From Scenedesmus sp. PABB004 (taxonomy: Eukaryota), in contig CM026547.1 of NCBI GenBank assembly GCA_014905635.1, forward strand, positions 1,054,001-1,118,000: 64,000 nucleotides of DNA, written 5' to 3'. Below, piece by piece: positions 22,216-64,000 of this stretch (the first letter of the stretch is position 1; each line of letters starts with the position of its first letter). The notes under the pieces were generated by a model that made no database searches, was not told the DNA's origin, and saw only the letters and a program-made list of their open reading frames with translations. The position numbers and the translations under genes are program-made.

Positions 22216-22280
<65 letters not shown>

Positions 22281-27535: not shown

Positions 27536-27727
27536 CGCCACAGGCCCCCCGCGGGGGCGCGCGACGTGCCGCAGCGCAGCTGGCCGCCGGGCCAGCGCGC
27601 ACGCGTCTTATTATGGCTGGCCCCCCGCCGCCGCGCGGCGCCGCCGCCGCTGCTCGCTGCGAGCGCGCGGCGCGGGGCGCAGGCGGCGGGGCCGCCGCCA
27701 CCCGAAGCCTCAAGGGCACTTGAAGCC

Positions 27728-35500: not shown

Positions 35501-35570
35501 GCGGCGCGGCCGCCGTGGCGCCGCCGGCGTGCGCCCATCCGCCAGCCCGAGCGGGGGGCGCCAGCCGCAT
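32545..35570 (-). CDS. SET-domain (SMYD-like) protein lysine methyltransferase, probably organelle-targeted
   Basis: GRGYGVVAARDIAKGTLL; AFNHSCAPNA; AGDEVTLDYL; post-SET WGFTCRCERC; helical and acidic C-terminus; transit-peptide-like N-terminus from ATG 35570. Confidence 0.88.
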
Positions 35571-35916
35571 GTGGACAGCGATCGGAGCGGCGGGAGCGCC
35601 CGGCGTGGCGCCTGACGCCGCTCCGACGGCGAGCCGCGTGGCCGCAAGGCGGGGCGCCGGGACGGGCAAAGGCCGCGGGCAGCTGCAGAGTGCCGGCTGT
35701 TCGCGAGCTGCTGTGCGTCCTTGCCGATCGGAAGTCGAAGACCCCCGGGCGCGGCGCGGGCGGCGCGGGCGGCGCGCCGCGGGCCACAGCCCTGCGCAGC
35801 TGGGCAGGGCGGGCAACAAGCGTCGCGTCCACTCGCTCCCAGCCCCGCGCATCAACGCCGGCAGCCCCGCAGCGCAGGTCGCACGCTCGCGCACACCGCT
35901 GCCGCTGCTGCCGCCG

Positions 35917-41069: not shown

Positions 41070-41487
41070 GGCCGCGCCCGCTCGATCCCCGGGCCCCAGG
41101 CCTGCGGGAAGCAGCACGGAGAGGCGATGGAGGTGCTGCAGCGCTGGGGAGGCGGCGGGACCCGCTGAAGTGTTTGAAGCTGGTGGTGGGCTCGGGCCGA
41201 CTTCCGGGCTGCCTGAACTCCGTGCCGCGATGCTGGGGCGGGGCGCCGGGGCCGCAGGTCGCGCGAACGAAGCGAGCGTGTTACTTTTTTGAGCCGTGCC
41301 GCCGCCGCGTAGTGCCGGCCGCCTCCCCGCGGCTGCCGTCGTGCTGCTCCCGCGTTTGATCGGCGGCACGGCGGCCGAGCGGGGCAGCAGGAGACCCCCA
41401 CACCAAAGTCAACGCGCGCGCGCCGACCAGGCGCCGCAGCGTGGCCATGCCCGCCTAGCCCGTCCAGGCGCCCACCAGGCCGCCAGC

Positions 41488-44400
41488 ATGCCCGGGCGCG
41501 CACCGCCGCGGCGTGCCGCGGCGCTGGCGGCGCTCGCGCTGCTCGCGGCGGCGGGCAGCGCGCTCGGCCCTCGCCCCGCGGCGGCGACCAAGTGGACCTG
41601 GTTCGTGTACATGCTGGCCGACAACGACCTGGAGCAGTTCGGGCTCATGGACATGGAGGTGCGGAGGCGCGCGGCCGCGAGCGAGCGCCGCTGCCGCGTG
41701 CGGCCAGTCGCGTCCCGCGCCTTCGCGCTGCGCGCCGCCTCGCGCACGCGCCGCCTCACGCACGCGCGCGCGCGGCGCGCAGGAGATCATGGCTGGCATG
41801 TCGGCGGAGCCGCCGGGCTGCGTGAGCGCCGCGTGCGGCGCGGCCTGCCCCGCCGGCACGGTCGCCACGTACTCGGCCGCCTGCCCCGGCGGCGCCGCGC
41901 CGCGCTGCTGCCCGCCCGAGGCCTACCCGGACGTGCTGCTGCTGGTCGACCGCGGCTCGGGGCAGGCCGCGAGCTACGTCGCCGGCGCCGCGCCGCACGG
42001 AGACTACAGCCTGCTCACGACCGAGTGGACGACCGCCAAGGAGCTGCTCGCGCTGCCGGGTGGGTCGGCGGGCGGAGGGGCGGCAGCGGCCTCTCGCGCG
42101 CGGCGCGGCGGGGGCCGGGCGCCGGCGCCGCCGAGCACCGCGCCGCGCCGCGCAGGCGGGCAGTGGCAGCAGCTGAAGGACCACGCGGAGCTCGACCTCG
42201 CGTCGCCGGCGGTGCTCGCAGACTTCCTGCGCCGCGGCCTGCAGCGGTGCGCGTGCGCGCGCGTGCGGCCGGCGCCGGGAGGGCGCCGCCGCGCCGGCTG
42301 CTGCAGGCCCCGCCCGCTCATGATCAGCGCGCGCGCCCGCGGCCCCGGCCCACGCACACGCACACGCACACGCCCGCGCCCGCGCCGCCACCCGCGCGCA
42401 GCTTCCCCCCGAGCGCTGACCGCAAGTACATGCTGGTGTTCTGGGACCACGGCAGCGGGTGGTGGGGCTACGGCGTGGACCACACGTGCGGCGTGGTCGA
42501 CGCGTACAGCAGCTCGCGCGGCTGCGACATGCTCACGATGCGCAAACTCGCGCAGGGTGCGGCGCCGCGCGGCTGTCTGTGTCTGTGTGTGCGCGCACGC
42601 GCGCGCCCCCGCAACGCCGCGCCCGCTCACACGCCGCTCCCACGGCGCTCCCGCGGCGCCGCCGCGCGGCGGCGGGCAGGCCTGTCGGACGGGCTGGTGC
42701 ACCCCGACAGCGGCGCGGCGGTGAAGCTGGACATCATCGGCTTTGACGCCTGCCTGATGTCCATGTACGAGGTCGCGTCCACGCTCGCCCCCCACGCGCA
42801 CCACCTGCTCGCGAGCGAGCTGCTCGAGCCGGGGCACGGCTGGGACTACGCGGCGCCGCTCGCGGCGACGACGGCCGCCGGCGGCGCGCTCGGCAGCGCC
42901 GGCCTCGCGCGGGCCGTCATCGACGGCTACCTCCAGCAGGCGCGGCCGGTGCAGGGTTCTGGGCGTGCGCCGCCGCCGGCCTGCGCGCGCGTGCGGGCGG
43001 GGCGCGCGCCGCGCGCCTGCTGCGGCCGCCCCCACCCGCGGCCGCCGGCGGCGCGGCGGCGCGCGCAGGCGGCCGCGTACGAGACGTCCGGCCTCACGCT
43101 CGCGCTGGTCGACCTGGGCGTGGCCGGCGGCGCGCTGGAGGCGGGCGTGGCGGGGCTCGCCGCGTACTTGGCACGCCAGCTTGCCGCCGACCCGGGTGCG
43201 CGCGAGCTGCAGCCGGCAGGCCCAGGGGCGGCGCAGCGCATGCGCGCGCGCGGGGAGGGCCGCGCGCTGAGGGCCGGCCCGCCGCCGCGCTGCAGCGTAC
43301 GCGATGCTGCTCCTGCGCCGGCGCGCCGCGCTGGGCAAGATCTCGGGCGCCGAGGAGAACGGTGCGCAGGGCCGTGGCGCACGCCGCGCGCCCGCGGCCG
43401 CGCGCGCGGGGTGGGGCAGCGCGCCCGCCCAACACCAACGCGCGCGCGCGCCCCGCAGTCGACCTTGGCGCGCTGCTGGCGGGGCTGCGCGGCCTCGACG
43501 GCTCGCCCGCGCTCGCGGCGGCGCTCGCGCCCGCCCTCGACGCCTACAACGGCAGCGTGGCCGCGTTTGACCGCGACGCCGAGCTCGCCGACGTGCGCGC
43601 GCCGCCGAAGCACGCGCGCGCGCGCCGCCGCCCCACGGCTCACGCCCCCTCACACCCCCTCACGCCCCCTCACGCCCCTTCACGCCCCCCACGCCCGTCC
43701 CTGCCCCCTGGCGCCTTGCAGGGCTCCGGCGTGGCCATCTACTTCCCCAGCTCCGCGGCGGCGCTGTCGCCCGCGTACGCCGGCTTCACCGCCGCCGACC
43801 CGACCGCGCTCTCGGGCTGGGCCGCCTTCCTGGACGCCATGTATGCCGCGACCGCGGCCTACACCAGCGACCCGCTGCTCGGTGCGCGCGCGCGCCGGCC
43901 GCGCGCAGCTGCGCCTCCGCCGCGCCCGCCCGCCCGCCTGCCACGCGCGCCTGCTGCACACACGCCGCGGGCCACGCCGCGCAGCTGACTTTGGGTTTGA
44001 GGAGGCCAGCGCCGCGCCGTACCTGGCGGTCTCGACCGGGAGCTGGGTCACGCACGGCACGCTGACCAACCACATGGGCCTCACGTCGGCGCTGCTCTAC
44101 GGCTTCCGCTCGCCCAGCAACACCCAGTTCATCACCGCCGGCAGCGCCGAGGCGCAGCTCCAGGGCAGGCGCGCCGCGCCGCGGCCGCGCCGCCGTCGCG
44201 CGCCGCGGCGGGGCGCTGCGCGCCGCGGCAGCGCGCTGCGCGCTGCGCCGTGTCCGACTCGCAACCGGCGCGGCTGCCATCCCCGTGCGCAGGCTGGCGG
44301 TGGGCGCGTGGTCGGGGTACCTCTTCGGGCTGCTGCAGGACGTCTCGCCCGGCGACGGCGCGGTCGACGGCCTCGCGCTCGCGCACGTCGACGAGGCGCG

Positions 44401-47400
44401 CGTGCTCGCGCCCGACCGCTCCGTCGCGCAGCTCATCCTGCAGGCCAAGGCGCGCCGCGCCGCGCCGCGCCGCGCCGCGCCGCGCCGCGCGCCGCCACCG
44501 CCGGCCTGGGTCGCCCCCGGCCGCGCCGCGCTCCGCGCCGCGCCGCGCGGTTTTGCTGACCGCGCCGCGGGGCGCAGGTCTTCTACGCGGCCAGCTGCAC
44601 CGCGGCCGCGGCGGACATGAAGCGCGGGGTGCTCAAATACGTCTACGACACCGCCGGCGCCAACGCGACGCTGCAGCTCTTCGTCAGCTCGACGGGTGCG
44701 CCGCGCGCTCGGGGCAGCCCAACAACTCGGGGTCAAAACGCGCGGACGTGCGGGGTCAAACGGTGTGCTTCCGACCCCGGGGCGCCGACCCCGCGCGCAG
44801 GCTCCTCCTGGGGCGAGGTCCCCCCCGCGCAGGGCGGCGTGGTCGTGCCCTACATGGGCAGCTACGCCCTCGACGGCGGCGGCGCCGCGGGCGCGGGCGG
44901 GCGGCCGGGCGCGTCGTTCGGCTACGCCGACTGCCTCAAGTGGGGCTACCGCGACGCGATCCGGCTCGCCGCGTTTGACGCGACGCAGGCGGCCGACATC
45001 CTGGGGCTCGACCTCGCACGCGTGCGCGCAGCGGCGGCTGGCGGCTGATGCATCACGCCCCGCGGCGGCGGCTGAGCGCGGCGCCCGCGGCGCCGACACC
45101 CGCCCGCCCGCGCGCGCACGCACACGGCGGCGCCGCAGGACATGGAGACGCAGCTGCTGGTGACCTCGATCGACGGCGAGGTCGCCGGCCTGCCGGGGTT
45201 CTTCGGCCCGGCGCAAAAGACGCTCGCGGGGTGCCAGTGCAGCCAGGCGTGGCCGTACAATGCAAGCGACGGCACCGTGACGGTCGTGCGCGGCGCGTGC
45301 ATCAACCCCGGCGCCGACCCGCGCGGCGCGTGGTGCCGCTACGCCCCCGACAGCTGCACCAACGCGAGCGGTGCGCGCGCGGGCCCCGCAGACCGCGCGG
45401 GGCGCCTGCCGAGGGCGCGCGGCCGCAACTCTCACGCCGCCGCTGCGCGCCGCTTGCGCGCAGCCGCGGCCAGCGCGGAGTGGGACTACTGCGCGCCCAC
45501 GGTCACGCTGTCGGGGTGCCGCTGCCACCCGAGCTGGGCGCTCGGCGGCGAGACGCACTACGGCTCGTGCGCGTCGGACGGCGACCCGCGGGGGTCGTGG
45601 TGCGTCGTCGACCGCGCAAGCTGCCCCGGCCCGCACCGCGCGCACCGCTTTGGCGCGGAGCACGCCATCAACGCCACGGTCGGCGGCGGCGCCGCGACGC
45701 TGACCGGGCTGGACTTTGACTTCTGCCAGACCACCACCGTCAACGGCTGCCACTGCCGCAACGCCTGGGCCTACGCCGGAGACACGCACGCGGGCACGTG
45801 CCGGCAAGGCCTCGCGGGCGGCGGCGCGCTGCCGGGGTTTAGCGCCGCCACGCCCTGGTGCTTCGTCGACGGCGTCGACGGCGGCACCTGCGCGGGCTCG
45901 GGCTACGTTGGGGGCCACATGGTCGACATCTGCACGCCCGAGGGTGGCCGCGTCGCGGTGTCGGGCGCGGCGTGCGAGCTGCCGGCGAGCTACGGCGGCG
46001 CGCTGATGTACGACTGCCTCGCCTACAACCTCACCGCGCCCGGCGGCGCCGCCGCGGCCGCGGCGCCCTGGTGCTTCACCAACGCGACCGCGGGCGCGCA
46101 GGAGGCGTGCGCGCCGTGGAGCTGCGGCGCCGCGGTCAGGCGGGCCTGCCCGCCGTTCGACCCCGCCGCGCCGCCGCCCGACGCCGCGCTGCCCGGCTGG
46201 GCGGCGCCGGCCTGCCTCGAGGCGCTGTGCAGCGCGCGGCAGGCGCTCGCCAACATCAGCCAGTGCGCGGCGACCGACGGGCCCGCCGACCGCGCGGCGC
46301 TGGCCGGCGCGTACTCGTACCTGGCCGCCAGCCCCGCGTTCGGCGCCCTGCTCGCCGGCGCGACCGGCGCCGCGTCGCTGGGCGCGCACTGCGCGGCGGC
46401 GTCCGGGGAGCTGTGCGTGGACGCGCTGCTCGACCCGGCCTGCCCCGCGCTCTACCGCGCGGGCAATCGCTGGTTCATGGACGCCACGCCGGCGGGGCTC
46501 TGCGACACGGGCTGCCTCACCGCGCTGTGCCGGCTGCAGGAGGCGGCCAAGGCGAGCGTCCAAGGCACGCCGAGCTGGGAGCAGCACGTCGCCGCGGCGC
46601 GCGGCTTCTCGCCGCCCGGCACCGTGTGCGCGGACGCGGCGCTGGAGACGCTCGTGCGCTGGACGCTCATGGCCGAGATGGACCGCTCCTGCGGCTGGCC
46701 CGGCCCGGCCAGCCTCGCCTGCAACCGGCTGCTTTCGGAGCCGCAGCTCTGCGCGGCCGAGACCGCGCTCACGGCGCTGGCGGGCGACGTCAGCGACGCC
46801 GTGCCGCCGGGCGGGCGCTACGCGCCGAGCAGCGCGTGCGCGTGGACGGTCAGCACGCCCAACCTTCCCTTCATCACCCTGAACTTCACGACCTTTGACA
46901 CGGAGCCCCTCTACGACGTACTCACGGTCGAGGTGGGCCGGAAGGGCGCGGCGCGGCGCGGGGCGGGGCGGGGCGCGGCGCGGCGCGGCGCGCACGCACC
47001 TGCCTTGGACCGCGCGGCGCAGCGGGCCGTGGCTCGCCGGCGTGGCGCCTGACAACGGCCCGCCGCCGCCGCCGCCGCCGCCACGCCGGGCAGGACTCTG
47101 ACGGCGTGATTGGCATGTTCAGCGGCGACGCGCTGCCGCCGGCGCTGAGCACCGACACGGGCGTCCTGCGGCTGCGCTTCGTGTCGGACTCGAGCCTGCA
47201 GCGCGGCGGCTTTGCCGCGAGCTACTCGGCGTCGGCGAGCCCCCAGGTCGCGCTGCCCGCGTGCGGCGCGCGGGAGAAGCTGGTGCAGGTGGTGCTGCGC
47301 AGCCGCGCGTACGGCGCGGAGCTGAGCTGGCTCGTCACGTCGCGCAGCAGCATCGCCGCGCTCAACCCGCCGAGCGCGCTCAACATCGTCATGGCCGGTG

Positions 47401-50234
47401 CGCCGCGCCGACGGCCGGGCAGCAAGCGCGTCGTCGCGGGAGGCACAGGGCGGCGCTGCGTGCACAGCATGCGCGTGGCGACCGTGCCTGCGTCCGCGCC
47501 GGTCCGCGCCGCGCAGGCGGGCTGCTGCCGGCGGCGCTGCGGTCCAAGGTGCCGCGCGGCGTCGCGGCCGTCGCGGACGGCGAGTACGGGGATTATCGCA
47601 GCTACTACTCTTATGCCTGCCTGCGCCTCGGCGAATACAGCCTACACCTGTACGACAGCTACGGCGACGGCTGGGACGGCGGGCGGCTGTCGCTCACGCA
47701 GATGCTCAGCGCGTCGTCGGGATGCCAGCTGCTGAGCGCGACCACGGCCGCCGCGGACGTGAGCCTGCCGTTCACCATCACGGTGCGCCTGCGCGCGCGA
47801 GAGCCGGGGCGCACGGGCGCCGGGGTTGTGCCGCGCGCTCGCTGCCGCGCGCCGCCACTGACAGCGGCGGCGCCTCCGCTGCTGCCGCAGGAGGACGCCG
47901 ACACGAGCAGCGCGGCCTGCGCGTCGCTGGTCAGCGCGGGCGCGGCGGAGTCGTGGTACGCGGAGGCGGGCATCGTTGTGCGGGGCGAGCACACGGGCAG
48001 CTTCAACCTGGCGAAGCAGCGCAAGGTCAAGGAGGCGCTCGCGCTGCTGCTCGACGTCGACGCGGCGGGCGTGAGCATCCAGGAGCTGGCCAACGCGAGC
48101 GCGGCCGACCTGGCCGCGACGGCGTGGGGCAACAGGAGCGCTGCGCAGGCGACTGGCGTCGGTGGTGGCGGCGGCGGCGGCGACGGCGGCGGCGCGCCCA
48201 TCGGCCGCGTGCTGCTTGCCGCTGCTCAGCGTGGCGCGCCGCCGGCTGCGCCGCCGGCTGGCAGCGTCCAGGCGCTGCTGCACGAGCAGGGGGCCTGGCA
48301 GGGCCCCGCGCCCGAGGCGGGCGGAGGCGGCCGGCGCGAGGCGCTCCGCAGGCTGGCGCGCCCGGTGAGCGAGCTGGTCGCCTCTGGCGCGCTCGACGCC
48401 GGGCAGCGGCAGCTGCAGCAGGTGGCGGACCAGCTGCGCGAGCAGGAGCGCGGCGGCCCGACGGCCGCGCCGCCGGCCCCCGGCGCGTGGCCGCTGGAGC
48501 CGGAGTGCGCCGAGCCCGGGCAGTGCCAGCCGGGCGCGGTGTGCGCCGCTGCGTGCGCCGGGCCGGCCGGCCGCCGGCTGCAGCAGCTGCTCACGCTCAG
48601 CCAGGAGGGGGATTGGCTCGACGCCGACGCGGCGCCCGCGCCGGCTGCCGCCGGCGGTGCGAGCGTGGCGGCCGTGCTGGCTGCGCAGCCGCTGCAGGCG
48701 CCCGGCGGCGCCGGCGCGGGCGGGCAGGGGGCGGCGCGGTGGCGTCACTGCTGCAGCCGCTGCGGCCGCTGTCGGGCCCGCGGCCGCGCAACGGGACGTC
48801 ACGCGGCGGCAGGGTCAAGCACGTCGTGCTGTCGGCCAGCTTCCGCGATGCCTTTGCCAGCAGCGCTGACGGCAGTGGCGGCACTGGCGGCGGCAGTGGC
48901 GGCGGTGCGCAGACGGCGGCGGCAGTGCCCAAGCCCAGCGCCGCCGACACTGCGCCCGCGCCCGGCGCCGCCGCGGCTGCGGGGGGCGCAGCAACCGCCG
49001 GGTCTGCGGTCGCCGTGTTTGATGCCATCCGGCCGCAGCGCTCCATGCTTGGGCAGGACCTTGGGGGTGGCGGCGGTGGCGCGCGGCCACTGCAGCGCGA
49101 GGCCAGGGCCACCGGTCGCGCTGGCGGCGGCCGGGCCGCGAGCGTCGCCGCGGCCGACGCCGCTGCGCTGGTGGGCGCGCCGCGCGTGCGACCCGACCAC
49201 AGCCGCCCGCGGCCCAAGCCCGTGACGCCGCGGCGGAGCGCCAAGGGCGGCGCGGCGTCGGGCGGCGGCGCCGCGGCGCACCTGGGCGTGCTCGGGCCCA
49301 AGACGCCGCTGCGGCGGAGGGCCCGCAAGCGCCACGCGCGGCCGGCCAAGGCGCCCACTGCGCCGCCGCCCCCGGCGTGCCGGACGCCGCCGCCGTCCAG
49401 CAGCCCGCGCGCACCGGCCGCGCGCTGCGCGAGGCTGCGGGCGGCGGCGGCGCGCTGCTGCTCGTCGCGCGCGTGAGCGGCTACGCCAGCCAGGCGGCGG
49501 CCGGGCAGGCGGCGGCGGCGCTGTCGCGCCTGGTGGCCAACGGCACGCTGCGCAGCACGCTCGCGGCGCAGGGCTGGGCGGACGTCGAGCTGGGCCTCGC
49601 CTTCACGCGCACCGGCGAGCGCGCGGGCCCGCCCGCGGCGCGGCCCTGGCGCACCATCATCATCGCCGCAGCGGCCGCCGGCGGCGGCGCGCTGCTGCTC
49701 GCGCTCGCCGGCGCGCTGTGGTACGCGCGGCGCGCGCGCGCCGCCGGCGCGGCGGCCGTGCCCGCCGCCGGCCCCGGTGCGGGGCGCGGCCACGCGCGCA
49801 TGTCGGCGCCGCCCGGCCTGCTGGCGTACGGCGGCGCCGGCGCCGCGGCCCTGCCGGCCTTTGGCGCCCCCGCGCCCGGCGGCGGGGCTGGCGGCGGCGC
49901 GTACGGCCGCGCGCGCAGCAACACCAGCCCACCGCCCGCATTCCGGGCGGGCGGCGTTTGCAGCCCGAGCGACGTACACGCGGCGGTGCAGGCCAACCCC
50001 TTTGCGCCGCCGGTGCAGCAGGCGCGGCAGTGGCAGCAGCCGCAGCACGGCGCGGGGCCGCGCGCTCAGCCCTGGGTTGGCGGCGGCGGCGGCGGCGGCG
50101 GCGGCCCGCCAGCGCAGCAGGCGCCGCCAGACCTCACGGCGGTGGAGGCCTTCACCGCGCCGCGCTCTGCCGCGGCGTCGGTCGTCCAGCACCAGACGCG
50201 CGGCGGGCGCGCCAGCCACGCGTCGCTCCTGTGA
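41488..50234 (+). CDS. Giant type I membrane protein: clostripain (peptidase C11) + Cys-rich FN2/kringle-like repeats + CUB + low-complexity stalk + TM + cytoplasmic tail
   Basis: Signal peptide; KWTWFVYMLADNDLE; WDHGSGW (His 42448); IIGFDACLMSMYEV (Cys 42751); ASELLEPGHGWDY; GVAIYFP; GCxC..W..C..WC repeats; CUB (YAPSSACAWTV...FDTEPLYDVL...LRFVSDSSLQRGGFAASY); TM ~49654-49724; about 16 introns. Confidence 0.88.
43639..43697. repeat. 10-bp minisatellite (CTCACGCCCC)n in an intron
   Basis: Read directly. Confidence 0.8.
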
Positions 50235-50471: not shown

Positions 50472-51377
50472 TCACGCGCTGACGCCGCCGCGGGTGTCGG
50501 CGTAGAGGGCGCTGGGGGGAAACTCGTAGTAGGCAGCAACGAACTTGGCCTGCGAGTGCAGTGCACGCGGCGGCTCAGCAGACAGGCGGCATGCGCCCGG
50601 CGGCCGCGCGCCGCGCAGCGCTGTCGGCCGCGCGCCGCCGCGCCTTGGCCTCGTCGGGTGAGAGGCCGCTGGCCGCGGCCCACGCGTCCCAGCGCGCGCG
50701 GCCCTCAAAGTCGAGCCCGCCGCCGCGCTCCGCCCACATGGGGCGCTCGGTCGCGTTGTCGCCGGCGGTCGCCTGCTGCGCGAGGCCGTAGAGCCTGCAC
50801 TCGGGCGCGCGGGCGCGGCGGACCGGCTTGGCTGGGCGGCGCGCCCACACGCGCCCGTGCGGACCTGGTCACCCGCGCTCGCCCGCGTGGCCGTCCGCGC
50901 CGCCCCGCGCCGCGCGCGCGCGCGCGCGCGCCTGTAGAAGTGGTCGGGCTTGACCGTCGCGCCGCCGGGCTTGCTGATGAGGCGCCACTTGAGCGACTCG
51001 TAGCTGCCCGACAGCGCCTCAAACTCGGCCGCGTCGTAGCTGGCCTTGGCGTGCGGCGAGCGCTCCGCCGCGCTGCCGCGCCCGTCGCCGCCGGCGGCCG
51101 CGGCCTCGTCGCTCGCGGCGAGCGCCTTGCGCAGGCGGGTGCGCGCGGCTGCGGCGGCGGACGGGCATCGGCGGCGGGCTGGCGTTGCCAGCGGCGGCAG
51201 CGGCGCGCCGCCCGCGGCAGCCTTCGCGCCCCCAGCGCCCCCACCGCGCAGCTTCTGGCGGTCCTCGCCCGGGTGGTCGTCCAGCCAGGCGGCCGCCGCG
51301 ATGGCGGCCTCAAGGGCGGGCACAGCGTCGGCCGCCTCGAGCGCGGCCGTCGCGGCGCTCGCGTCGGGGTGCGTCAT
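50472..51377 (-). CDS. Acyl-CoA-binding (ACBP) domain protein with N-terminal extension, 4 exons
   Basis: Spliced FYRLYGLAQQATAGDNATERPMW...DFEGRARWDAWAAASGLSPDEAKAKFV matches the ACBP pattern; two GC-AG introns. Confidence 0.85.
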   Translation of the reverse strand: MTHPDASAATAALEAADAVPALEAAIAAAAWLDDHPGEDRQKLRGGGAGGAKAAAGGAPLPPLATPARRRCPSAAAAARTRLRKALAASDEAAAAGGDGRGSAAERSPHAKASYDAAEFEALSGSYESLKWRLISKPGGATVKPDHFYRRARARARRGAARTATRASAGDQVRTGACGRAAQPSRSAAPARPSAGSTASRSRRPPATTRPSAPCGRSAAAGSTLRAARAGTRGPRPAASHPTRPRRGGARPTALRGARPPGACRLSAEPPRALHSQAKFVAAYYEFPPSALYADTRGGVSA

Positions 51378-51653
51378 GGTCGGGGCGTCGCCTGGGACGC
51401 GCGGCACGGGGTCGGGGACTGAGGGCGCCGGGTGGCGGGCTGGGGGAGCCGTGCAGCGGCGCGCTGCTTCGTCAATCTTGAACCGCCCGCTCCTGCCCCG
51501 TCGGTCGCGATTTGCCACCGTGTCACCCTGCAGGAGCTGCCCGCCCGCGAGCCCAGACTAACTCAAGTCAGCGGCCGCGCCCCGGGCCAGCGGCAGCAGC
51601 GGCAGCAGCGGCAGCAGCGGCAGCGGCGCTCGCGCCCACGCGCCCATCTCGCG

Positions 51654-52031
51654 ATGGCGGCCGACGACGCGGCCTTTGCTCTCGCGCCCGACGGCTCCGC
51701 CCGCGACCCCGCGGCCTTCCAGGCGGCGCTGCGCGCCGACGCGGCCAAGGCCGCGGCGCTCGCGGCGGACCCCGAGCTCGCGGCGGTGCTGCTCGGCGAC
51801 GACGTGGCCGCGATGCAGGCGCTGCTGCGCGAGGCCTACGCGGCGGAGCTGGAGCGCGCGTCGCGCGCGGTGGCGCGGGCGGCGGAGCGCACGATGGACG
51901 CGCAGCGCGCGAGCGCGCAGCGCCCCCGCGACGTCGTGCAGCTCTACACAGCGCTGGCTGAGAGCGGCCTGCAGTACGGCCCGGCCTTCCGCCTGCTGCG
52001 CAGCGTGAACGTGCCCGACGTCGACCCGTAA
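51654..52031 (+). CDS. Small intronless protein: DDI1 helical-domain-like N-terminus plus a PKS-dehydratase-like C-terminal motif
   Basis: PDGSARDPAAFQAALRAD...DPELAAVLLGDDVAAMQALLR resembles plant DDI1 HDD; LYTALAESGLQYGPAFRLLR resembles the PKS DH GLxYGPxF motif; 125 aa. Confidence 0.75.
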   Translation: MAADDAAFALAPDGSARDPAAFQAALRADAAKAAALAADPELAAVLLGDDVAAMQALLREAYAAELERASRAVARAAERTMDAQRASAQRPRDVVQLYTALAESGLQYGPAFRLLRSVNVPDVDP

Positions 52032-52579: not shown

Positions 52580-54875
52580 CTAAAAGTACAGCCGCTCCTC
52601 GTCGTCAGGAGCAAAGGGCCCCGTATCGGCGGGGAACAGCGCCGCCGCGGCCGCGCCGCGTGCCAGCATGTCGCCGCGCACCAGGCGCGCGCCGCTGGCG
52701 TCGCTGCCGGCCTCGCCGGCGCCGCCCAGGCCCACCAGCGACTGGCAGGACGCGGCGCTGGGCGCGCTGCTCGTCGCGCTGCAGGGCGAGCCGCCCTGGC
52801 CGTCCGCGGCGCCGCCGCCGGGCATCGACCCGAGCGGCGGCGCGCCGTCGCCGCCGCCGCCACGCACGGCGCAGCGCAGCCGGCTGGGCCGGGGCGGCGC
52901 GCGGCCGGGCAGCGGCGCGTCGGGGCTGGCGTCGCTGCTGTCGAAGCAGGGGCCGTCGATGACGCAGCTGCTGCCGCGCGCAAACGCCTGCGCATCGAGC
53001 AGCACCGCGTAGCCGCTGCCGCCGCTGATGTGGCAGCTCGTCGCCTGCGGGCGAGCGCGGGCGAGCGCGGCCGGCGCGCGTGTGACGGCGTGGCGGGCGG
53101 GGCGGGCGGGGGCGGCCGCGGCCTCGCTGCGGCGGCGCCGCCCCGCAGGCGCACACGTGCGCGCGCGCGCGCACCTCGCACGTCGCCGCCTGCCAGAGCC
53201 ACACGCCGCCGGCGCAGCCCGTGACCTCGACGTGCTTCAGCACCGCGCTGCCCTCGTCGCCGACCTCCACGCCCGCGCCGCCGCAGCCCGCGACGGTCGT
53301 GTTCGTCGCGTGCAGCGCGCCCCGCTCCAGCACCACCAGCCCGTCCGCGCCGGCGTCGGCGACCGTGCAGCCCTCCAGGAAGGCCTGGGCGCTCTCGCAC
53401 ACGAGCATCGCGTGCTGCCCGCCCGTGAGGCTGCAGCGCCAGAGCGTGGAGCTCGACGACCCGGCCTGCTTGATGCCGCAGCGCCGCGCCTGCGCGGCGC
53501 GCGCGGGGCGGGCCGCGGCGGGCGGCCGTCGGCGCGGCGCCGGCGCGGCGGCGGCGGCGCGCGCGCCGCGGCCTCGGACGCGCGCGCGGCGCGGCGCGGC
53601 ACGACGCGGCGCGGCGCCCGCGCACCACGATGGTGCACCCGTCGAGCAGGGGCTGGGCCTTGCCACCGACCGCGAGCGCGTCGTCGCCGCTGCACGAGAG
53701 GCGCAGGCAGCGCAGGACGGGCTTGATGCGCGCCGAGGCGTGGCTGACGCACACGGCCTCGCAGAAGCCGACCATGTCGACGGTGAAGTCGCGCAGCACG
53801 CAGCACCTGGCGGGCGGGCGGGCGGGCGGGGGGACAGACGGCGTGCGCGGGCAGGGGCGGGGGCGGGGGCGGAGGCGGGGGGACGCGTCGGCGGCGCGGC
53901 ACGCGCAGGTGAGTGTGTGCGAGCGTGTGTGCAGCGCGGCGCGCGCGTGCAGCGCGGCGCGGCGCCTGCGCACGCCTGTGGATGGCAAGGGCCGGCTGGT
54001 TGGCGCGGTGGTCGAGCACGACCGCGGCGGCGTCGCCGCCCAGGCCCTCGACCAGCACGCGCTGCCGGACGGTCAGCGTGGCCTGCGCGGCCGGGGCGCA
54101 GGCGGCGGCTCGGGCGCCGCGGCGCGGGCGGCGCGGGCGGCGCGGGCGGCGCGCGCGGCGCGGGCGCGGCGCGGCGCGGGCGGCGCACCTGCGAGACCAC
54201 GTGCGTGCCGGGCAGCAGCTGCACCACGTCGCCGTCGACCGCCGCGGCGAGCGCGTCGGCGAGGCTCGTGAAGCTCAGGCCGCCCGCCGCCTCCGCGCCC
54301 TTGTCGCCCGGCAGGCCCAGCCACACGGTGCTCGCGTCGCAGGGCAGCACCTGCGCGGCGCGGTGGGCGCGGCGCGGTGGGCGCGGCGCGGTGGGCGCGG
54401 CGCGGTGGGCGCGTCGCGGCGGGCAAGCCGCGCGCGGGACACGCGTGCGCGCCGGCGCCGGCGCCGGCCGCACCCGCAGCGTGCGGCCGTCGAAGCCGAT
54501 CAGGTCACCCGCCGCGGCGGCGTGCATGCAGATGTCGTCGACAAACTCGGCGTGCGCGCTCGCGCTCCTGCGGCGGGTGCGGCGGGCGCCCGCGTCGGCC
54601 GAGGCAGCGCCGTGCCGCAGCGCGCGCGCGGGCACCACCCCAGCGCCGGCGCGGCCCAGGCGTGTGTGTCGCGGCGCGCCGGGCCCGCACCCGCCAGAGG
54701 CAGCAGCCTGGTCGGCGCGCGCCGCCGTGAGCGCCGCTGCCCACTGCTTGGTCTCGAAAAGCCTGCGCGGCGGCGCACCGGCTGCGTTGGCCTGGGCTCG
54801 CGCTCGCAGCGCGGCTGCCGGGCGGGCGCGCGCCTCGCACCTGCGCGCTGAGGAGCTGCGAGCGTGTGCTGCCAT
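52580..54875 (-). CDS. Right-handed beta-helix (pectin-lyase-like, SKIP5/FBXO11-type repeats) protein, ~8 exons
   Basis: SLADALAAAVDGDVVQLLPGTH; repeats LEGCTVADAGADGLVV, NTTVAGCGGAGVEV, HVEVTGCAGGVWL; no signal peptide; one GC-AG intron; ends EERLYF*. Confidence 0.82.
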
Positions 54876-55311
54876 CGCAGCGCCAGCAGCCCGCGCGTGC
54901 GCCGCGGCGCGGGCCGCCCGCGTTCAGCCCTCGACGGCGCTCGCGCGGGTGAGCGGCGCCCGCGTGGATCGATCGATGGGCGCGTGCCTGGCGGGCCCTC
55001 CCACGCGGCCCTCAGACGCAATTGCAGGGCCGCGCACGCTGCGCACGGACCGCACGTTCTGCAGTGTCTGGCGCTGGAGGAGCTGTTGTGAAGGGGGCTG
55101 GGGCTGCGGGGGCCTTGCAAACACCAGCGCTTGCGCCGCCGTGACGAGCAGCAGCGGCGCGCGTCACACGCCCGCGCCAGGTGCAGTCCGAGCTTCCCCG
55201 GCCTGGAGCTTTGGCCTCTCACGTCCTCAACTGCGCCGCGCGGAGCTCGGACTGCGCCGGCCTTGCGGCGGCGGCGACCGGTTGCGCCGCGAGCTCGCGA
55301 GCAGCTGCTGA

Positions 55312-55316
55312 TTACA
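55312..55316 (-). terminator. TGTAA polyadenylation signal of the truncated dynein gene
   Basis: Chlorophyte poly(A) signal ~180 nt downstream of the TAG at 55494. Confidence 0.55.
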
Positions 55317-55493: not shown

Positions 55494-58400
55494 CTAGTGG
55501 CAGCCCGGCGCGTCGCCCGGGAAGAGGCCGGCGACGACGCCGTTGAAGAGGGGCACGTCGTTGGCGAGGAGCTTGCACTGGTTGACCTCCACCAGCGCGC
55601 GCAGCACGAGCGCAAGCTCGCCCTCCCCCGGCGACGCGCGCCTGAGCGCGCCCGCGGACCGCAGCACCGCCGCCACCGCGCGCATGCCGCAGTCGTAGCA
55701 GCGGTCCTGGCTGGAGAGCTGCTCGCTGCAGAGGCGGTGCGCGGCCACGATCCTGCGCGCGCACTCGCGCGCCTGCGCGGCGCCGCGCGGCGCGGCCGGC
55801 GGCCGGCGCTCGGCCCGGATCTCTCGCAGCCGCGCCCCGCGCAACCGCCCGCCCGCTCATGTGGTCACAGCACGCACCTGCACGTAGCCGCTTGACAAGA
55901 GCATGACCTCAGCGATCAGCGCGACGTCGGGCACCGCCTGGCGGCGCCGGCCGGCCAGGCGGCGTGCCGTGAGCCCAGCGGGGACACCGCGCCAGGCCGG
56001 CGCGACGCAGCGCTCAGCGCGCGGCGCGCAGCGCCGCGTGGTCGCAGGCTTGCGCGGCGCGCACCATCGCGACGGTGCGGAACAGGGCCTTGAGGCTGTC
56101 CGGCAGCTCGCTGCGGCCTACGTGGCAGCGGCGGCGGCGGCCCGGGGGCGGCTCGGCGCGCGCGCGCGCGCGCGTGCGCGCGCGTGCGCGCGAGGCGCAG
56201 CCGGCGGGGAGGGCGGCGGCCTGCGCCCACGCACGCCACCGACGCGCGCCGCGCAAGCCCGCCGCACCGGCGCCGCTCGTGTCCACCGTGGCAAATACGG
56301 CGCAGCTGTGGCGCAGCGGCAGCGTGGTGCCCTCGAAGGTGAACGAGCGCAGGCACGCTCTGACGGCGAGCTGGACCTCCATGACCTGCTGCGCCACGAC
56401 CGACAGCACCTGGGCGGGCGGGCGGGCAGGCCGTGGCGGCGCGCTCACTCTGGCGCCTGCGCCGCACAGCACTCGCGCCAACGACGACGCCTGCCACCCC
56501 CACACGCGCATGCCGCCCACCTTGAGGTCGGCGCGGTTCAGCTCGTCAAAGCACGCCCACGCGCCGCTGGCTGCGAGGCCCTTGCACAACGCGGCCACCG
56601 CGAGGCAGTCGAGCGCGCCGGAGCAGCCGAGCACCACACACTGCCGGCCGAGCGCCTTGGCGAGGTCCCTGGTCGCCTCCGTGCCCCCGGGCCTGCGGCG
56701 CGGCAGCGTCGGCGGGCTCGGACGCCCAGCGGGCCGCGCCGCATGCGGCGCGGTGCGCACCGCACGCAGGGCGCGCTAGTCTGCACGCGCGCCCCGGCCC
56801 GCCGCGCAGCGCAGCCGCCGCCGCCGCCGCCGCGCGCACCCCTCTGACGCGCCGCCGAGGCCGAGGTGCACCGCGCCGATGAGCGCCTGGCGGTGGCAGC
56901 GGTCGGTCAGCGGCGTCACCACGAGCCGCCCGCTGTTGCCCAGGTACTCGTACCCGTAGTCCGCCTGCGCCATCCAGGGGGATGGGGATATGGCAGGGGC
57001 ACGTCGGGCGCGCGTGCGCGCGCGGCGTCGGCCGCAGGCCGGGCGGCGGCGGCCGCGCCGGGCGGCGCCGGGCCCCCCGCCGCCGCGCAGCGCCACCCGC
57101 GCGCGTCGGGCCACCCACCCGGGCATCCATCATGCGCACGACGATGGTCTTGCCGCCGTCCGCGCCGCCGGCGCGGCCGCCCCGGGGGGCCTCGGCGTCC
57201 TCCCAGTACGTGCGCAGGCAGGACAGCCAGCTGAAGTGCTCGGGCTGGCCCTCGATGCCCTCCTCCGCAAGCGACGCGGCCACGTCCCGGGCATGCACGT
57301 CCATGACCACCAGCGCGCTCAGCGTGGCCCTGCCGCGGCGGCGGCGGCGGCAGCCGCGGGCGCAGCGGCGCGTGAGCGACGGAGGCGGCGAGGCGAGTCA
57401 CGGGCGCCCGGGCGGCAGCAAACCCCGCTCCGGGCGCAGGCGCACCGGTTGAGGTTGGACAGCTCGCCGCGCACGAGCTCCACCACCTCGCCCAGCTGCG
57501 CGGTGCAGCGCGCCGCCACGCCCGCGAGCGCGCCCCGGCCGCCGGCCGCCGGCGGCGCAGGCGGCGCGGCGGCGTCGCCGCCGCCGGGAGCGGGCGACGC
57601 AATCGCCTCGGCGACCTCCTGCGTCCAGTAGATGCCCGACACCGCCAGCACGACCTGCCCCGGCCACGCCATCGCCCACGCGGCGCGCGGCGTGGCTGGG
57701 TAGGCCTCGGAGGCGCGCCGGCACACCTCCTGCAGGCTCTCCACCATGCCCGCCTCGACCTGGAGGGCGCAGGCGCAGCGGGGGCGGCGCAGCATCGGGC
57801 CGAGCACGCTCGCAGCAGGGCCGTCGCTCGGCGCGGCGGCGGGGCGGCGCCCGACGGCCGGCACGCGCGCGCCGCGCGCCGCGCTCCGCTGCCGCCGCAC
57901 CTGTGCCAGCCACTTCTCCACGGCGCCGTTGGCGTCGGCCGGGCGGATGCGCGTCTTGAGCGGCACCAGCTCGCCCTCCGCGCTCAGCATGCCGGTGACG
58001 TCGCCGTTGGGCTTGAACCTGCGTGGCGCCGGCGGGCGGCCGGGCGGCGGTGCGCCGTGGGCGGGCGCGCGCTGCGTGGCGCGCGCCGCGCCCGCAACCC
58101 CCGCCCCGCCCCGCGCGCGGCGCGGCGCGCACTGCAGGCGGTCGATGCCCTCAAACGCCTTGCGCAGGTGGGGCTGCACACGCATGGGGTCCTTGGCCTC
58201 AGCCAGGACCTCCAGCACCTCGTCATTGGAGAGGAAGAAGAAGCTGCGGGGGCAGGCAGGCGGCGGCAGGGGTCAGGCCAGGCCAGGCGAGCGAGCGCGC
58301 GCGCGGGGCGGGGCCGGCGGGCGCGGCACGGCGCGGCGCGGCGGGCGGCCCGCGGCCGCGCACCGCGGGAAGGCGAGGCGCTTGACCTCGAGGAACGCTG

Positions 58401-61400
58401 CCAGGCCCTGCGCGGGGTGTCAGCGGCGTGCGGCGGCGCGGTCACACGCACGCACACCCGCGCGCGGCGCCGAGTCCGTCTGAGCTGGGCGTCACCAGCC
58501 CTCCAGGGCCAGCCCAGGGCAGGGCTCCTGCCTCGCGGCGCGCCGCCCCCCGCTGAGCGTGTGCACGCGCCTTTTGGATCTCCTCCAGCAGCTTATTGGC
58601 CTCCTCGAGTCGCGCAACGCGCTCGGGGTCGTCTGCGAGGCCGAGCACGCTGGGCGCCGCCGCCGCGGCCTCCATGAGGTCGCGCCACGCCGTGTCCGCC
58701 TGCGCGGCGGCGCGGGGCACGCGGCGCGGCGCGGCGGGCTCCTCAGCCCGGCGCCCGGCGCCGCCCCGCGCCGGCCCGCCGCGGCTCGCCGGCCCGCCAA
58801 GGCCTCTGCGCGCCGGCGCCGCGCGCCGCGCCTGCGCAAACTTGTCGCCCTCGTCGGGCATGTGCCTGAGGACGTCGGGGGCGCTGAAGATCGGCCCCAG
58901 GTGCTGCCACGCCGCCTGGCAGGCGAGCCAGGCGCTGATCAGGTCCTGCGCGGCCAGCAGGCGGCGCTCCCAGGCGAGCAGGTCCGCCTCGAGCGGCTTG
59001 ATGAAGGCGCTCGCCCGCATCGCCTGCGTGCGGACCACCTGGTCGTCCAGCAGCACCTGCGCGCCGGCGGCGGCGGCGCAGCACGCCGCAGGCTGGTCAG
59101 TGGTCAGCGCAGGCAGCTGAGCAGCTCGCGCCGGCGCCCCACGCGCGCGCGCGCGCCTGCACGTCGTCGGTGCCGCAGATGACACTCGTGCCGGAGTCCT
59201 TGTACTCCGCGATGCGCAGCGCCACGCCCTCCCAGTCGGCCTGCATGCGCGCGAGCGCCGCGTCCAGCGCCGCCTCCTCGCTCGCCGCCGCGCCGACGCC
59301 GCGCAGGCGCTCGAGCTGCTCCAGCAGGTCGAACTGCAGCAGCTGCCGGATGCTGAACGACGCAAAGCCTGGCGCGGGCGGCGCGGTTGGAGCGCGCCGG
59401 TCGGGGCGGCGCGCAGCCCGCACCGGGTCCGCCGCTGGCGGTCGCAGCCGCACCCACCCCGCGGCGCGCCGCCGCACCCGCGCCGGTGTCGTCGCGTGGC
59501 GGGATGTCTGCGCCGATGATGTCAAACATCTCCCGCCAGTGCCGCGCCCGCAGCGCGGGGTTGCCCAGCTCCGCCACCAGCGGCAGCAGCTCCTGCGGGC
59601 GCCGGCGGTGGCGGCAGAGGCGGCGGCGGCAACGGCAGCAGCATGTGAGGGCCGCGCACGTGTGCGCGCGAGTGCACGAGCGCGGATGTGGGAGCCGGCG
59701 GCGGCGCGCGCACCTTGAAGTCGTCCACCACGTCCTTCAGCCGCGCCGCGACCGCGTCCTGCGCGCGGGCGCCCGGCGCAGAGCGGCGTGCGGCGGGGGC
59801 GGTCAGGCTGCACGCAGCGAGCGGCGTTGCGCGAGCCCGGCCGGCGCGGCGCGCGCGGGCAGGTGCACGCACGTCCTTGTTGGCCTTGACGGCCCTGTCG
59901 GCCTTGGCCGCGTAGTCGTCCACCTCGGCGCGGACGGACTCGACGTCGAGCAGCACGCGGCCGTCGTCGTCCAGCACCGGCTCCTCCGTCCAGCTCCGGC
60001 TCTGCTCCAGGAAGTCCCGCACGTTGCGCCACAGCTGGCGGGCGCGGCGCGCGGCGCGGCGTCGGCGTCGCCCTGCCCACCGCGGGGCTCTTGGGCGCCC
60101 CGCCGGCGCGCGCGCAGGCTGCACGCAGCCCAACAAACAGGGGCTGCGTGCTGCTGACAGCGTGCGCAGCGCGGGTCACCTGGTACCGCGCATTGACCTC
60201 CTTCTCAGTGACCATGAGTGCGCCGAGGTCGTCCGGCGGGGCCTCAAAGAGGGCCAGGTAGGTGTTGTACTGCCCCAGCGCCTCGCCCAGGCCGCTCACG
60301 GACTGCAGCAGCGCCTCCAGGTCCGCCACGACCTCGTCGGGGTCCGCCGCCGCGTCGACGTACTTGCCTGGCGCGGCAGGCGGCGGGCGGCGGTGGCGGT
60401 GCTGGGCGCGAGCGCGGGGCGGCGGGCGCCGGCCGTCGCCGTGCGGCCGCACCCGCGTGCAGGCCGTCGGTCAGCGCCGCGAGCTCCTCGTTCACCGACG
60501 CCACGCTTGCGGCGAGCGTGGCGGCCTGGGCCTCCCTGTGGTCGGCGATGAACTCCTTGCCCTGGCACGGGACAAGAGAGGAGGGCAGGGCAGCGGGGGC
60601 GGCAGGGCGGGCAAGGGTCGAGGTTTGGTGGAGTGGCGCGCTGTGGCGCGCGGCAGTGCGGCGCGCGGGCGCGCGCGGGCGCGCGGGGCGCGCGCGCCTC
60701 TGTGAGCTGCGCCTGGAACGCGGCGAGCGCGTCGGTGAGGTCGTCGTGCTTGACCTGGTCCGCGGTCGGCACCTTTTGCTCGTGCGCGGCGAGCGACTCA
60801 TACATGTCGTCCACCTGGAGGGAGGGGCGGCGCGTGGGCGTGGTGGGGCTCTCGCCGCGACCAACCTGGAGCTCCAGACCCGCGCCCGCAAGCCCCTGGC
60901 GCGCCGGCAGCCCGCGCGGCGACGACCGCACGCGCGTCCGAGGGAGGCCCGGCGCCGCACCGCCACGCCGCCGCACCTGGCCGACCTGGCTGGAGAGCAG
61001 CTTGCGGTCGTTGAGCTGCGCCGCGTGGAGGGACATGTAGGCCACAAACTCGTCCAGCTGCGCGGGGCGCGCGGCGAGCATGGCGCTGCGCGCGGTGATG
61101 TCCTCCAGCACCGCCAGCGTCGCCTGCGCGCGGCGGCGCAGGTTGCGGCGGGGGCGCGGGCGCACGCGGTGCGCGCCCGCCGGGCGTCGGCCGGCATCGC
61201 GCGCACGCGCGCGCACCTGGCGCGCCATGTTGAGGAGCAGCAGCTTGATGCGCTCCAGCGCCGCCGCGGTGACGGGCACGAGCTCCGCGCGCAGCGGCTT
61301 GGCGTCGATCTGCAGGCAGCCGGCGGCGATGCTGGTCCGCATGCGCTCGAGACTGGCCTTCCAGTTGCGCTGCATGACCAGGTCGCGCCGGATCTCGCCG

Positions 61401-64000
61401 AGGCCGCGCGGCTGCGCCGCGTACGCGTCACCGTCCCAGGTGCGGCCAAAGTCCCAGACCTTGCGGTAGCCCGCCTCCAGCTCCTGGACGCCGGCGGGGC
61501 GGGGCGGCCGGGCGGCCAGGGAGGCGGGCGGTGAGCGGCGAGCTCGCCGCTCGAGCGGCGAGGTGCGAGCGCGAGGGGCCCGCCGCGGCGCGCGCGCTGC
61601 GCAGCGTGCGGTGTGAGGGCCGCCCCGCCCCGCGCCGCCGCGCCGTGCCGCACCCGCGCCGCGTCGCGCGCGGCGGAGAAGTCGTCGATGATGGCCTGGT
61701 TGATGGCGCCGCGCTGCGACAGCAGGCGCGGCGTGGACCGCAGGATGGCGAGCGCGTTGAGCCCGCTGGGCTTGCCCTCAAACAGGTGCGCAAACGCGCG
61801 CATGAACAGCACACGCGGCGCGCCCTGCCGGGGTGCGGGGCGGCGCAGGGGTGGGGCGGGACGAGGGAGGTCGGCGGGGCCCCAAGAGGCCAGAGCGCGG
61901 GCGCTCGGCGCGGCGTGGGCCTCCCAGGCGCGCCTGCACGACCGACAGGATGCCCTCCAGCGTGTTGGCGTTGACCGCCTCCAGCACGGCCGCCTCGGCC
62001 GGCGCAAACGACACGCCGCCGCGCTCCTCGAACGACACCAGCACCGTGAACAGAGCCTTGGCCTGCTTGTCGCCCTGGCGCGCCAGGCAGCGACAAACAG
62101 CGCCTCGGCGCGCGCGCTGCGTTGGCTCTGATCACCCGTCGCCCACACACACGCGCCCGGGCGCCACCCCGCACCTGCTGCTTGTGCGCCGTGAGCAGGG
62201 CGAGCACGTCGTCCACCGCCGCGACCGCGGCGGCCATGAGCCCCTCGACGAGCAGCAGGTCGGCCAGCCGCACAAACGCGCCCAGCTGGCCCAGCTCGGC
62301 CATGACGCGCGCGTAGTTGGCGGCGCGATCGACCTTCTCCTGCGCACATTTTTGCACGCGGGCAGCGTGTGCGGACGCGGCGCTCAGCGGGCAGCGCGCG
62401 CTCCGCGGGGCGGTCCCCCGCCGGGAGGCCCCGCGGCTCTCCTTGGCACGCGGCCGCCCCCAGCACGCCGCGCCGCGCCGCGCCTGCTTTATGACCACCA
62501 TCGGCCGCGCCCGCCCGCCGGCGGCGCCGCCGCCCTGGAAGGGCTCCACGCCGGTCGTGTCGGCCAGCTCCGCGGCGTCGCGCACCGACTCGGCGTACAG
62601 CGCCGCCTGCGCCGCGACGTCTCGGCACAGCCGCTCGAGCGCCTGCGGGCAGGCCGGTTGGGGGCGGGGTCGGCGCCCGGCGCCCGGCGGCTGCGCTGCC
62701 GCCTGGCAGGAGCGCGGCTGGGGCCGCGCGACAGACTGGCAGCGGGCCAGGGGGCCACTGATTGGGTACCTTTTGGACTTTGTCCACGATCGCGTCCAGC
62801 GCAGGCTTGGCCTTCTGCTCCCGCGTGGCGACCTGCAGCTCGCCATACTCCTGCGCCGCGCGCGCCGCCGCGGTGGGCGCGGCACGCGCCGGCGGCGCCC
62901 CCGCGACCCTACGCCGCCCGCACCTGCAGCGTGTACGTGTGGCTGGGGTTGGCCCACGCGAGGCTCACGCCGCGCAGCTGCGCGGCCGCCGCCGCGACCT
63001 CGCGCAGCGTGGCCGCAAACGTCAGCCGCCCGCCAAAGAGCTTCGCCTCCACCTGGGCGCGCACGCGCCTGAAGTTCTTGCGCCGCACGCCCTGCCGGCG
63101 CCGGGAGCGGGCAGCTCGTGGGCACGGCGCGGGGGCGAGGCGCGGCCGCAGGGCGCAGCGGCGCGGCGCGGCGCGGCCCCCGCCGCGCGCCGCGCGCCGC
63201 ACCCGGTGCCAGCGCCCAAACGCGCGGCGCGTGAGGAAGTGGCGGAAGAAGCCGATGCGGCTGACGGTGTCAAATAGGCTGCTCGACCGCACCCACGCCG
63301 CGAGCGGCACAAACTCGGCCGCCGCGCCGCGGCGCACCGCGACGACGCCGTTGGCGGACAGCGTGAAGTACTCGGGCAGCCGCCCGAGGCCCTCCCGCGC
63401 CGCGACGCGCAGGTCGTACGGCCGGAAGCGCGCGCCCTCCGGCGCGCTGGGCGCGGGGACACGGCGGCGCGGCGGCGCGGCGGCGCGCGTGTGGGCGGGC
63501 GGGGCGGGGGCGGCGGCCGCGGCGACCCTGCGGCTCAGCGCAGCGCCCTGCTGCGTGCCGCCCGCCCGCTCACCGCACGCAGTAGAAGAACTTGACGGGG
63601 CTGTCCTGCCCGTGGCGGCCGTAAAAGGCGACCACGTCCTCCCCCGTCACCACGCCGGGCACCGCGTCGGGGTCCGCGCCGCCGGGGGCGGGGTCGGCCG
63701 GGGCCGCGGCCGGCCCCCAGCAGCCGCCCGGGCTGCCGCCGCCGCCGTCGCCGGCATCCACGTCGGCCGCCTCGCCGGCCTCCGCCTCCCAGTCATCACC
63801 AGGCTGCTCCGGCGAGTCGGCGCGCGGGCGCTCCGCGTCCGACCACGCGTCGCGCGCCGCTGCGGCGCCGTCGTCGCCGCATCTGATGAGCTCGCCGCGC
63901 GGCTGCGGCTGCGGCGGCGCATGCTCCGCCGCCGGCCGGATCGGCCCCTCGCCCGACTTGCGCAGGCTGGCGGCGACGTCCGGCAGCCGCGGCACGTGCG
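55494..64000 (-). CDS. Axonemal inner-arm-type dynein heavy chain, C-terminally truncated after a degenerate AAA1; 5' end outside the window
   Basis: Tail FRPYDL...[10 protein letters not shown]; linker [82 protein letters not shown]1 [25 protein letters not shown]; stop after [10 protein letters not shown]; about 30 introns. Confidence 0.92.

Follow-up and report, generated by a model that had tools for sequence, protein, structure and literature searches.

The 64,000-nucleotide stretch of Scenedesmus sp. PABB004 analysed here (contig CM026547.1, positions 1,054,001 to 1,118,000; hereafter the window) contains a multi-exon gene for a dynein heavy chain, encoded on the minus strand from about 63,700 to 55,494. 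The locus is the 5' two-fifths of a single-headed inner-arm heavy-chain gene, consisting of tail, linker and AAA1 module. The main ATP site in AAA1 is destroyed, and the product cannot be an ATP-driven motor. We estimate at about one in two the probability that the locus is a catalytically dead dynein-derived gene, headless or split, which is under purifying selection now or was so until very recently. This reading is favoured because the linker appears normal, the AAA1 scaffold loosened and the catalytic pocket erased, and because the frame and the splice sites are intact, radical GC-ward changes are few and the 3' end is gene-like. A narrow literature search found no natural heavy chain cut to tail, linker and dead AAA1; provided that it is expressed and under selection, the gene would be the first such case known to us. 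If true, the reading bears on how inner-arm sites are filled or regulated, and on how motors become pseudo-enzymes.

The exon model was built from three-frame translation and a homology-guided splice search. It is a partial model of 15 exons and 770 codons between 59595 and 55497, collinear with the Trebouxia orthologue P0002, with no frameshift and no stop in the 770 codons. The 14 introns are 100-163 nt long and positioned so that the alignment to the orthologue stays gap-free. Exons 1-9 encode the linker (DHC_N2; 57119..59595, minus strand), as supported by Pfam, the splice search and collinearity with P0002. Exons 10-15 encode the AAA1 module (55497..56964, minus strand; Pfam AAA_6 and a PDB match), with coordinates 56964-56840, 56692-56521, 56409-56268, 56117-56065, 55937-55878 and 55772-55497 on the same strand. 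The exons of the tail (N-terminal stem) were located at 59669..63698 on the minus strand, on the basis of nine collinear tblastn matches to residues 189-943 of the full-length dynein P0089, from 63653 on, and of 18 coding-signature segments between 63698 and 59479. All six tail junctions tested were canonical GT-AG, and the 5' end of the gene lies outside the window. The GC content at third codon positions of the model is 0.956, against an intron GC content of 0.859.

Three GC-AG donors in the dynein model share the AG|GCGCG type with the INO80 gene used below as a control. Splice-site decay was ruled out as an explanation for these donors, since the control gene has the same AG|GCGCGC donors. 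At least two INO80 introns carry them, and GC-AG introns seem to be common in this genome.

Two linker exons matched Pfam DHC_N2 with E=7.2e-20 and 7.3e-09, and the AAA1 exons matched AAA_6 with E=2.9e-34 and 7.5e-22, although the AAA_6 pieces cover only profile positions 44-269 of 327. A PDB search with the AAA1 region reached E=1.8e-32, and the homology is thus not due to chance. In all three segments searched the top PDB chain was 8glv_Mm, a 4,209-residue Chlamydomonas axonemal heavy chain; next in rank were 8glv_Me and human DNAH3, DNAH12 and DNAH7. A FastTree phylogeny of the model and 66 homologues placed the Trebouxia protein P0002 as sister (branch supports not considered). By PDB matches and tree, the gene groups with the single-headed inner-arm chains and not with outer-arm, I1 or cytoplasmic dyneins, which identifies it as a predicted axonemal heavy chain of the single-headed inner-arm type. 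The closest relatives in protein searches had about 65% identity over the matched stretches, and none was closer. When the last exon was used to scan metagenomes, there were 595 pattern matches but no confirmed one, and an exact 36-nt search for close relatives gave no match.

The loss of the ATP site can be read at the former P-loop, which is interrupted by intron 10 (56693..56839, minus strand, 147 nt, GT-AG, placed by the splice search). Here the exon end at 56840 (gag gg|GTGCGC) joins the exon start at 56692 (CAG|g ccc ggg ggc acg gag); an earlier note on this DNA had put the junction at 56841, one base off. The Walker A remnant past the junction reads G|PGGTE (56677..56692, minus strand, with the first two bases of the Gly codon at 56841-56840), where homologues have GPAGTGKTE; the homologues shown in the alignment at this junction read LGGAPEGPAGTGKTETTKD. 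The Walker A pattern GxxxxGK[ST] is not present, the sequence being GPGGTE, or GCARPGGT if an alternative donor is used. This second-best junction, with a GC donor 9 nt downstream and the exon end at 56831, yields the collinear EGCAR|PGGTE and puts Gly at the lysine position. The in-frame deletion of three residues described in the earlier note thus depends on the GT donor, while the loss of the lysine, also described there, holds with either donor. Intron 10 was searched for AAA/AAG codons and for GK[ST] in any frame, and none was found. A micro-exon or alternative site therefore cannot restore GKT, and the micro-exon restoring GTGKT, which had been named as the finding to overturn the loss, is excluded at the DNA level.

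The other catalytic motifs were compared in an alignment to homologues, which read GPAGTGKTE, VFNCS, CFDEFNR, ITMNPGYAGR and HYDYGMRA. Where these have VFNCS(D), the gene has VLGCSG (56634-56617, minus strand). Walker B is retained (CFDE, 56542..56553, minus strand), with CFDELNR in the gene against CFDEFNR in the homologues and the D-E pair kept. The sensor I strand and loop (56268..56295, minus strand) is degenerate in place of (F/S)ITMNPGYAG, and the sensor I Asn is replaced by Asp. RCYDCGMR (55680..55703, minus strand), with one residue more, replaces HYDYGMR(A); the sensor II Arg of GMRA is kept. The state of these four motifs had been noted before from the letters alone, and each motif could be read in the window and contrasted with the aligned homologues.

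Among 224 dynein proteins, 183 have a canonical P-loop, 23 do not cover the region, and 18 cover it without matching the strict pattern. Seventeen of these 18 are fragments of 114-301 amino acids, 14 of which keep the lysine, and the eighteenth, P0188, reads GPTGTGKTE. The P-loop lesion of the window gene was absent from all 224 proteins (23 of them not covering the region). The motif windows of the pocket covered Walker A and the strand after it, Walker B, sensor I and the strand after that, and sensor II. Of their 60 conserved positions 19 were changed, ten of them radically. This ranks first of 63 dyneins, the share of changed positions in these windows being 1.6% at the median and 14.5% at most in the other dyneins, and it agrees with the earlier view of a degenerate AAA1 pocket. 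In dyneins AAA2 supplies the arginine finger, and AAA2 is absent from the locus. The product is not a motor because the Walker A lysine is missing, sensor I is degenerate and AAA2 is absent at the locus.

Homology to dynein ends shortly after these motifs. Every homologue that reaches further, among them all 13 full-length dyneins, stops aligning at 55515, which in P0089 is residue 1655 of 4,234, and the alignment to 8glv_Mm ends at residue 1644 of 4,209. The last homologous stretch ends in ...LFPG, at about residue 1,650 of 4,200. Six codons past the last homologous residue there is a TAG stop codon (55494..55496, minus strand), and about 180 nt 3' of the stop lies a TGTAA (55312..55316, minus strand), a likely polyadenylation signal given the enrichment of this pentamer in the window. 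In Chlamydomonas and related algae UGUAA serves as the polyadenylation signal. TGTAA occurs ten times in the window against 2.8 expected, a count reached in none of 100 shuffles, at 1649, 5592, 6215 (minus strand), 6306, 17460, 26299, 26320 (minus strand), 36914, 50426 (minus strand) and 55312 (minus strand). A comparison with gene positions showed that several of these sites lie shortly 3' of other genes, namely the acyl-CoA-binding-protein (ACBP) and INO80 genes, on the matching strand. With a 1,594-position profile of 20 homologues, covering the linker to about AAA4, the matches in the window ended at position 677 when both strands were searched, and tblastn with E up to 10 found no further dynein-like piece below E=0.02 in the window. 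The next open frame downstream (52608..54923, minus strand) encodes an unrelated beta-helix protein (Pfam Beta_helix, E=1.9e-07) and not a dynein; the ACBP gene comes after it. Judged from these features, the locus resembles a complete transcription unit whose content is limited to tail, linker and AAA1. The earlier note had missed both this truncation and the strongly GC-ward character of the replacements.

Two candidates for a decayed second copy of the P-loop, at 55030-54983 (ALQLRLRAAWEGPPGT) and at 54900-54853, were rejected, with E=0.09-0.18 in a 2.7-kb search. The P-loop-like and Walker-B-like peptides ALQLRLRAAWEGPPGT and ARAGCWRC (54853-55030, minus strand) lie a short way 3' of the dynein gene and stand in the right order, but they lack support from profile searches and are probably due to chance.

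The selective state of the gene has to be judged against the base composition of the window, whose GC content is about 80% overall (0.72-0.83 in 2-kb steps). In all six frames there is one stop codon per 106-145 codons, and the window holds 354 stop-free stretches of at least 120 amino acids and 208 of at least 200. An open frame is uninformative on selection here, because at about 80% GC stops are rare in every frame. Among the 14 introns of the dynein model (55878-59478, minus strand), eight have lengths that are multiples of three, and several are stop-free in the frame of the exons. Retention of such introns would therefore often leave the frame open, so that open frames mislead. For genome scans this is a warning that at 80% GC an open reading frame is not evidence of function. 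The proposal in the earlier note of a pseudo-ATPase under selection for an open frame thus loses its argument from the frame, while selection on a pseudo-ATPase is still a live and somewhat favoured explanation, as the rest of the gene looks constrained.

The replacements are directional, running overwhelmingly from AT to GC at codon positions 1-2: the GC content of these positions rose in 57 cases, fell in 11 and stayed the same in 17. Counted over columns with a conservation of 90% or more, replacements affected 22 of 50 FYMINK residues (Phe, Tyr, Met, Ile, Asn and Lys, with AT-rich codons), 4 of 43 GARP residues (Gly, Ala, Arg and Pro, with GC-rich codons) and 6 of 91 other residues. The FYMINK content of the gene is 12% against 25-26% in the orthologues. 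As a control, the gene for an INO80-type chromatin remodeller in the same window was used (18470-26000, plus strand; DBINO, SNF2-related and Helicase_C domains), whose highest-scoring homologue is from Tetradesmus obliquus (1,020 bits, with at most 680 for the other homologues compared), which makes the organism a core chlorophyte. It retains an intact GLGKT motif. Conserved columns were changed at 17 of 271 positions in INO80 against 32 of 184 in the dynein (p=3e-4), and FYMINK residues of INO80 at 11 of 65. Near-invariant FYMINK residues were thus replaced at about 44% in the dynein and at 17% in an essential control gene, an indication of GC pressure reshaping proteins. With INO80 as control, GC pressure alone does not strip essential residues.

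The verdict on selection rests on comparative statistics from one sequence. In leave-one-out comparisons against 62 dyneins, 7 of 63 conserved columns were changed in the linker (rank 8 of 63) and 12 of 68 in AAA1 outside the motifs (rank 3 of 63). In an alternative count, the four canonical motifs had 16 of 49 positions changed against 5 of 60 in the linker (p=0.003), and the linker count did not differ from the 17/271 of INO80 (p=0.57). By these counts the linker falls within the range of working dyneins. The content of FYMINK residues is similar in motif windows (17/60) and linker (16/60). Stronger local GC pressure on the AAA1 half was considered and ruled out, since its introns have a GC content of 0.845 and those of the linker half 0.867. 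Where codon positions 1-2 hold two A/T sites, the residue was replaced in 41 of 87 cases, from which 27% would be expected for residues with one such site under uniform GC-ward drift; the latter were replaced in 31 of 187 cases (p=7e-4). Only 4 of 50 ancestral Leu were changed, and just one of them to Pro.

Under the favoured reading, catalysis would no longer be selected, and GC-biased substitution would have eroded the AT-rich codons of the pocket (Lys, Asn, Met, Tyr, Ile, Phe). Purifying selection would still act, or would have acted until very recently, on the linker and the hydrophobic core as well as on frame and splice sites. The gene would most likely encode a non-catalytic protein derived from a dynein. 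This might be a selectively kept headless heavy chain of tail, linker and nucleotide-free AAA1, without ring or stalk. Such a chain would dock by its tail and serve as a non-motor component of the axoneme, filling an inner-arm site in a structural or regulatory role, for instance as a passive occupant; we regard this version of the reading as possible but less likely than not. That the gene is the N-terminal half of a split heavy-chain gene, with the other half elsewhere, seems rather unlikely.

A number of points weigh against this reading. Truncated genes that have lost catalytic residues are usually pseudogenes, and about 61% of a dynein is missing from the window, where neither AAA2-6 nor a stalk with microtubule-binding domain nor a C-terminal region was found. 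Among the columns at least 95% conserved in 62 homologues, 25 of 137 were changed, where the homologues have 2 at the median and never more than 14. The changes of this lineage, polarised by the Trebouxia sister and six outgroups, were nearly flat over the conservation classes (0.21, 0.25, 0.19, 0.14, 0.22, 0.15), whereas those of the sister went from about 0.1 down to 0/164 across the same classes; such a flat profile is the pattern of relaxed selection. The terminal branch is 0.60 against 0.18 in the sister, 3.4 times as long. The motif windows behind the count of 19/60 were chosen from known AAA+ motif positions after the changes had been seen, an unbiased scan statistic for clustered changes was not significant (p=0.09, 0.17, 0.62), and linker and AAA1 did not differ significantly at the 95% threshold (p=0.19). 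The INO80 count of 17/271 was obtained with 51 of 120 listed homologues, an animal-heavy set that may inflate the INO80 rate. Strong GC-biased fixation could alter many residues before indels arise, which weakens the argument from the lack of frameshifts. Finally, the conservation of a linker without a ring is unexplained.

The main alternative is a young unitary pseudogene, which we hold possible but less likely than the favoured reading. In that case a deletion or rearrangement would have removed everything 3' of AAA1, and GC-biased drift would have acted since, in a lineage possibly giving up flagellar motility; frame and splice sites would be intact merely through short time and rare stops. 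The truncation at about residue 1,650 of 4,200 is a large coding loss, and the Walker A lysine and many near-invariant residues are gone. The flat profile and the long terminal branch, the GC-ward replacements and the excess of changed conserved columns over INO80 (32/184 against 17/271) point in the same direction. Conservation is undiminished up to the breakpoint, as a recent truncation would give, and one internal deletion could have spared the original 3' untranslated region with its TGTAA. A precedent exists in green algae, as PMC5100056 reports the loss of all inner-arm dyneins in Chlorella species. Uniform neutral decay does not, however, fit the gradient from linker (rank 8) over AAA1 scaffold (rank 3) to pocket (rank 1 of 63); FYMINK content and intron GC are similar across the regions compared. 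Changes from Leu to Pro and other radical one-step GC-ward changes are scarce. There is also no frameshift or stop in 770 codons and 15 exons, and all junctions tested are intact, even if the absence of stops says little at this GC content. Should the gene be a young pseudogene, the locus would show a green alga in the course of losing an inner-arm dynein.

It is distinctly unlikely that the gene is a full-length dynein with a dead AAA1, whose truncation comes from a structural variant or from a mis-join in the assembly. In favour of this, the conservation of the linker is best understood with a ring present, homology breaks off abruptly at a well-conserved exon, and GC-rich short repeats come after the stop. 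Against this, the window contains no N anywhere and no relic of AAA2-6 on either strand. A mis-join would further have to coincide with a stop six codons on, with a TGTAA spaced as it is behind other genes, and, about 1 kb beyond, with a gene that is unrelated yet has the same orientation. A sequencing or assembly error at the P-loop of an otherwise normal motor gene is extremely improbable: sequencing of GC-rich DNA is difficult and the missing residues would be explained by a single difference of 9 nt, but the collinear alternative donor still puts Gly at the lysine position, about 18 more conserved pocket positions are substituted, and AAA2-6 are absent too.

Several other features were found in the window. 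The ACBP frame (50578-50868, minus strand; Pfam ACBP, E=4.8e-13) reads LYGLAQQATAGD and GRARWDAW. In this family Tyr-Lys is usual before QAT and Lys before WDAW; both would be replaced in the window frame, which may be another GC-driven loss of conserved AT-rich codons. The stretch 26000-32000, especially 28892-30999 on the minus strand, has a lower GC content of 0.72-0.73 and a strongly positive GC skew of up to 0.18, a composition unlike the rest of the window, and its open frames carry DUF7507/DUF11 repeat domains. A long open frame at 41293-47732 (plus strand) matches the clostripain-type Peptidase_C11 (E=2.2e-19), followed by weak CUB-domain frames. Further Pfam matches were DUF4485 (9659-11674, plus strand), a class I methyltransferase (35311-36915, plus strand), the N-terminal part of a polyketide-synthase dehydratase domain (51423-52028, plus strand) and a weak match to the RF-1 domain, below cut-off (6556-7731, minus strand).

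Compared with known systems, the window gene is collinear in tail, DHC_N2 linker and AAA1 with the single-headed inner-arm chains (8glv_Mm and human DNAH3, DNAH7 and DNAH12). It differs from them in the missing Walker A lysine, the degenerate sensor I and the absence of about 61% of the protein at the locus. The earlier note had likened the gene to degenerate dyneins such as DNHD1. In the nomenclature review PMC8754002, DNHD1 is described as a 'ghost gene' which perhaps has not decayed at the normal rate or is becoming a pseudogene. As a comparison of ghost genes the analogy is apt, since both genes derive from dyneins, have open frames and seemingly do not encode canonical motors. It does not extend to the architecture, as DNHD1 is long and heavy-chain-like while the window gene is not full-length and stops after AAA1. 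The latter is a lineage-specific derivative of a canonical inner-arm class.

Split and partial dynein genes form a second group for comparison. According to PMC5100056, dynein genes are split within AAA1 in some basidiomycetes (DHC1, including Wallemia), and Giardia and Spironucleus have partial dynein genes. The window gene resembles these in being an N-terminal gene with its own stop in or near AAA1, and partial N-terminal copies do occur in the cases so described; the mark of a split gene, an N-terminal gene with its own stop (55494-96) and TGTAA (55312-16), is present. It differs in that the halves of the split genes make working motors with intact P-loops, whereas its own pocket is dead. 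The third system is that of truncated, motor-less 1-alpha heavy chains in Chlamydomonas, which assemble at the correct axonemal site according to PMC2156140. Those chains are laboratory transgenes of a two-headed dynein (I1 inner arm) with a partner chain, while the window gene is natural and of the single-headed class. The 1-alpha truncations nevertheless illustrate how a headless product could act.

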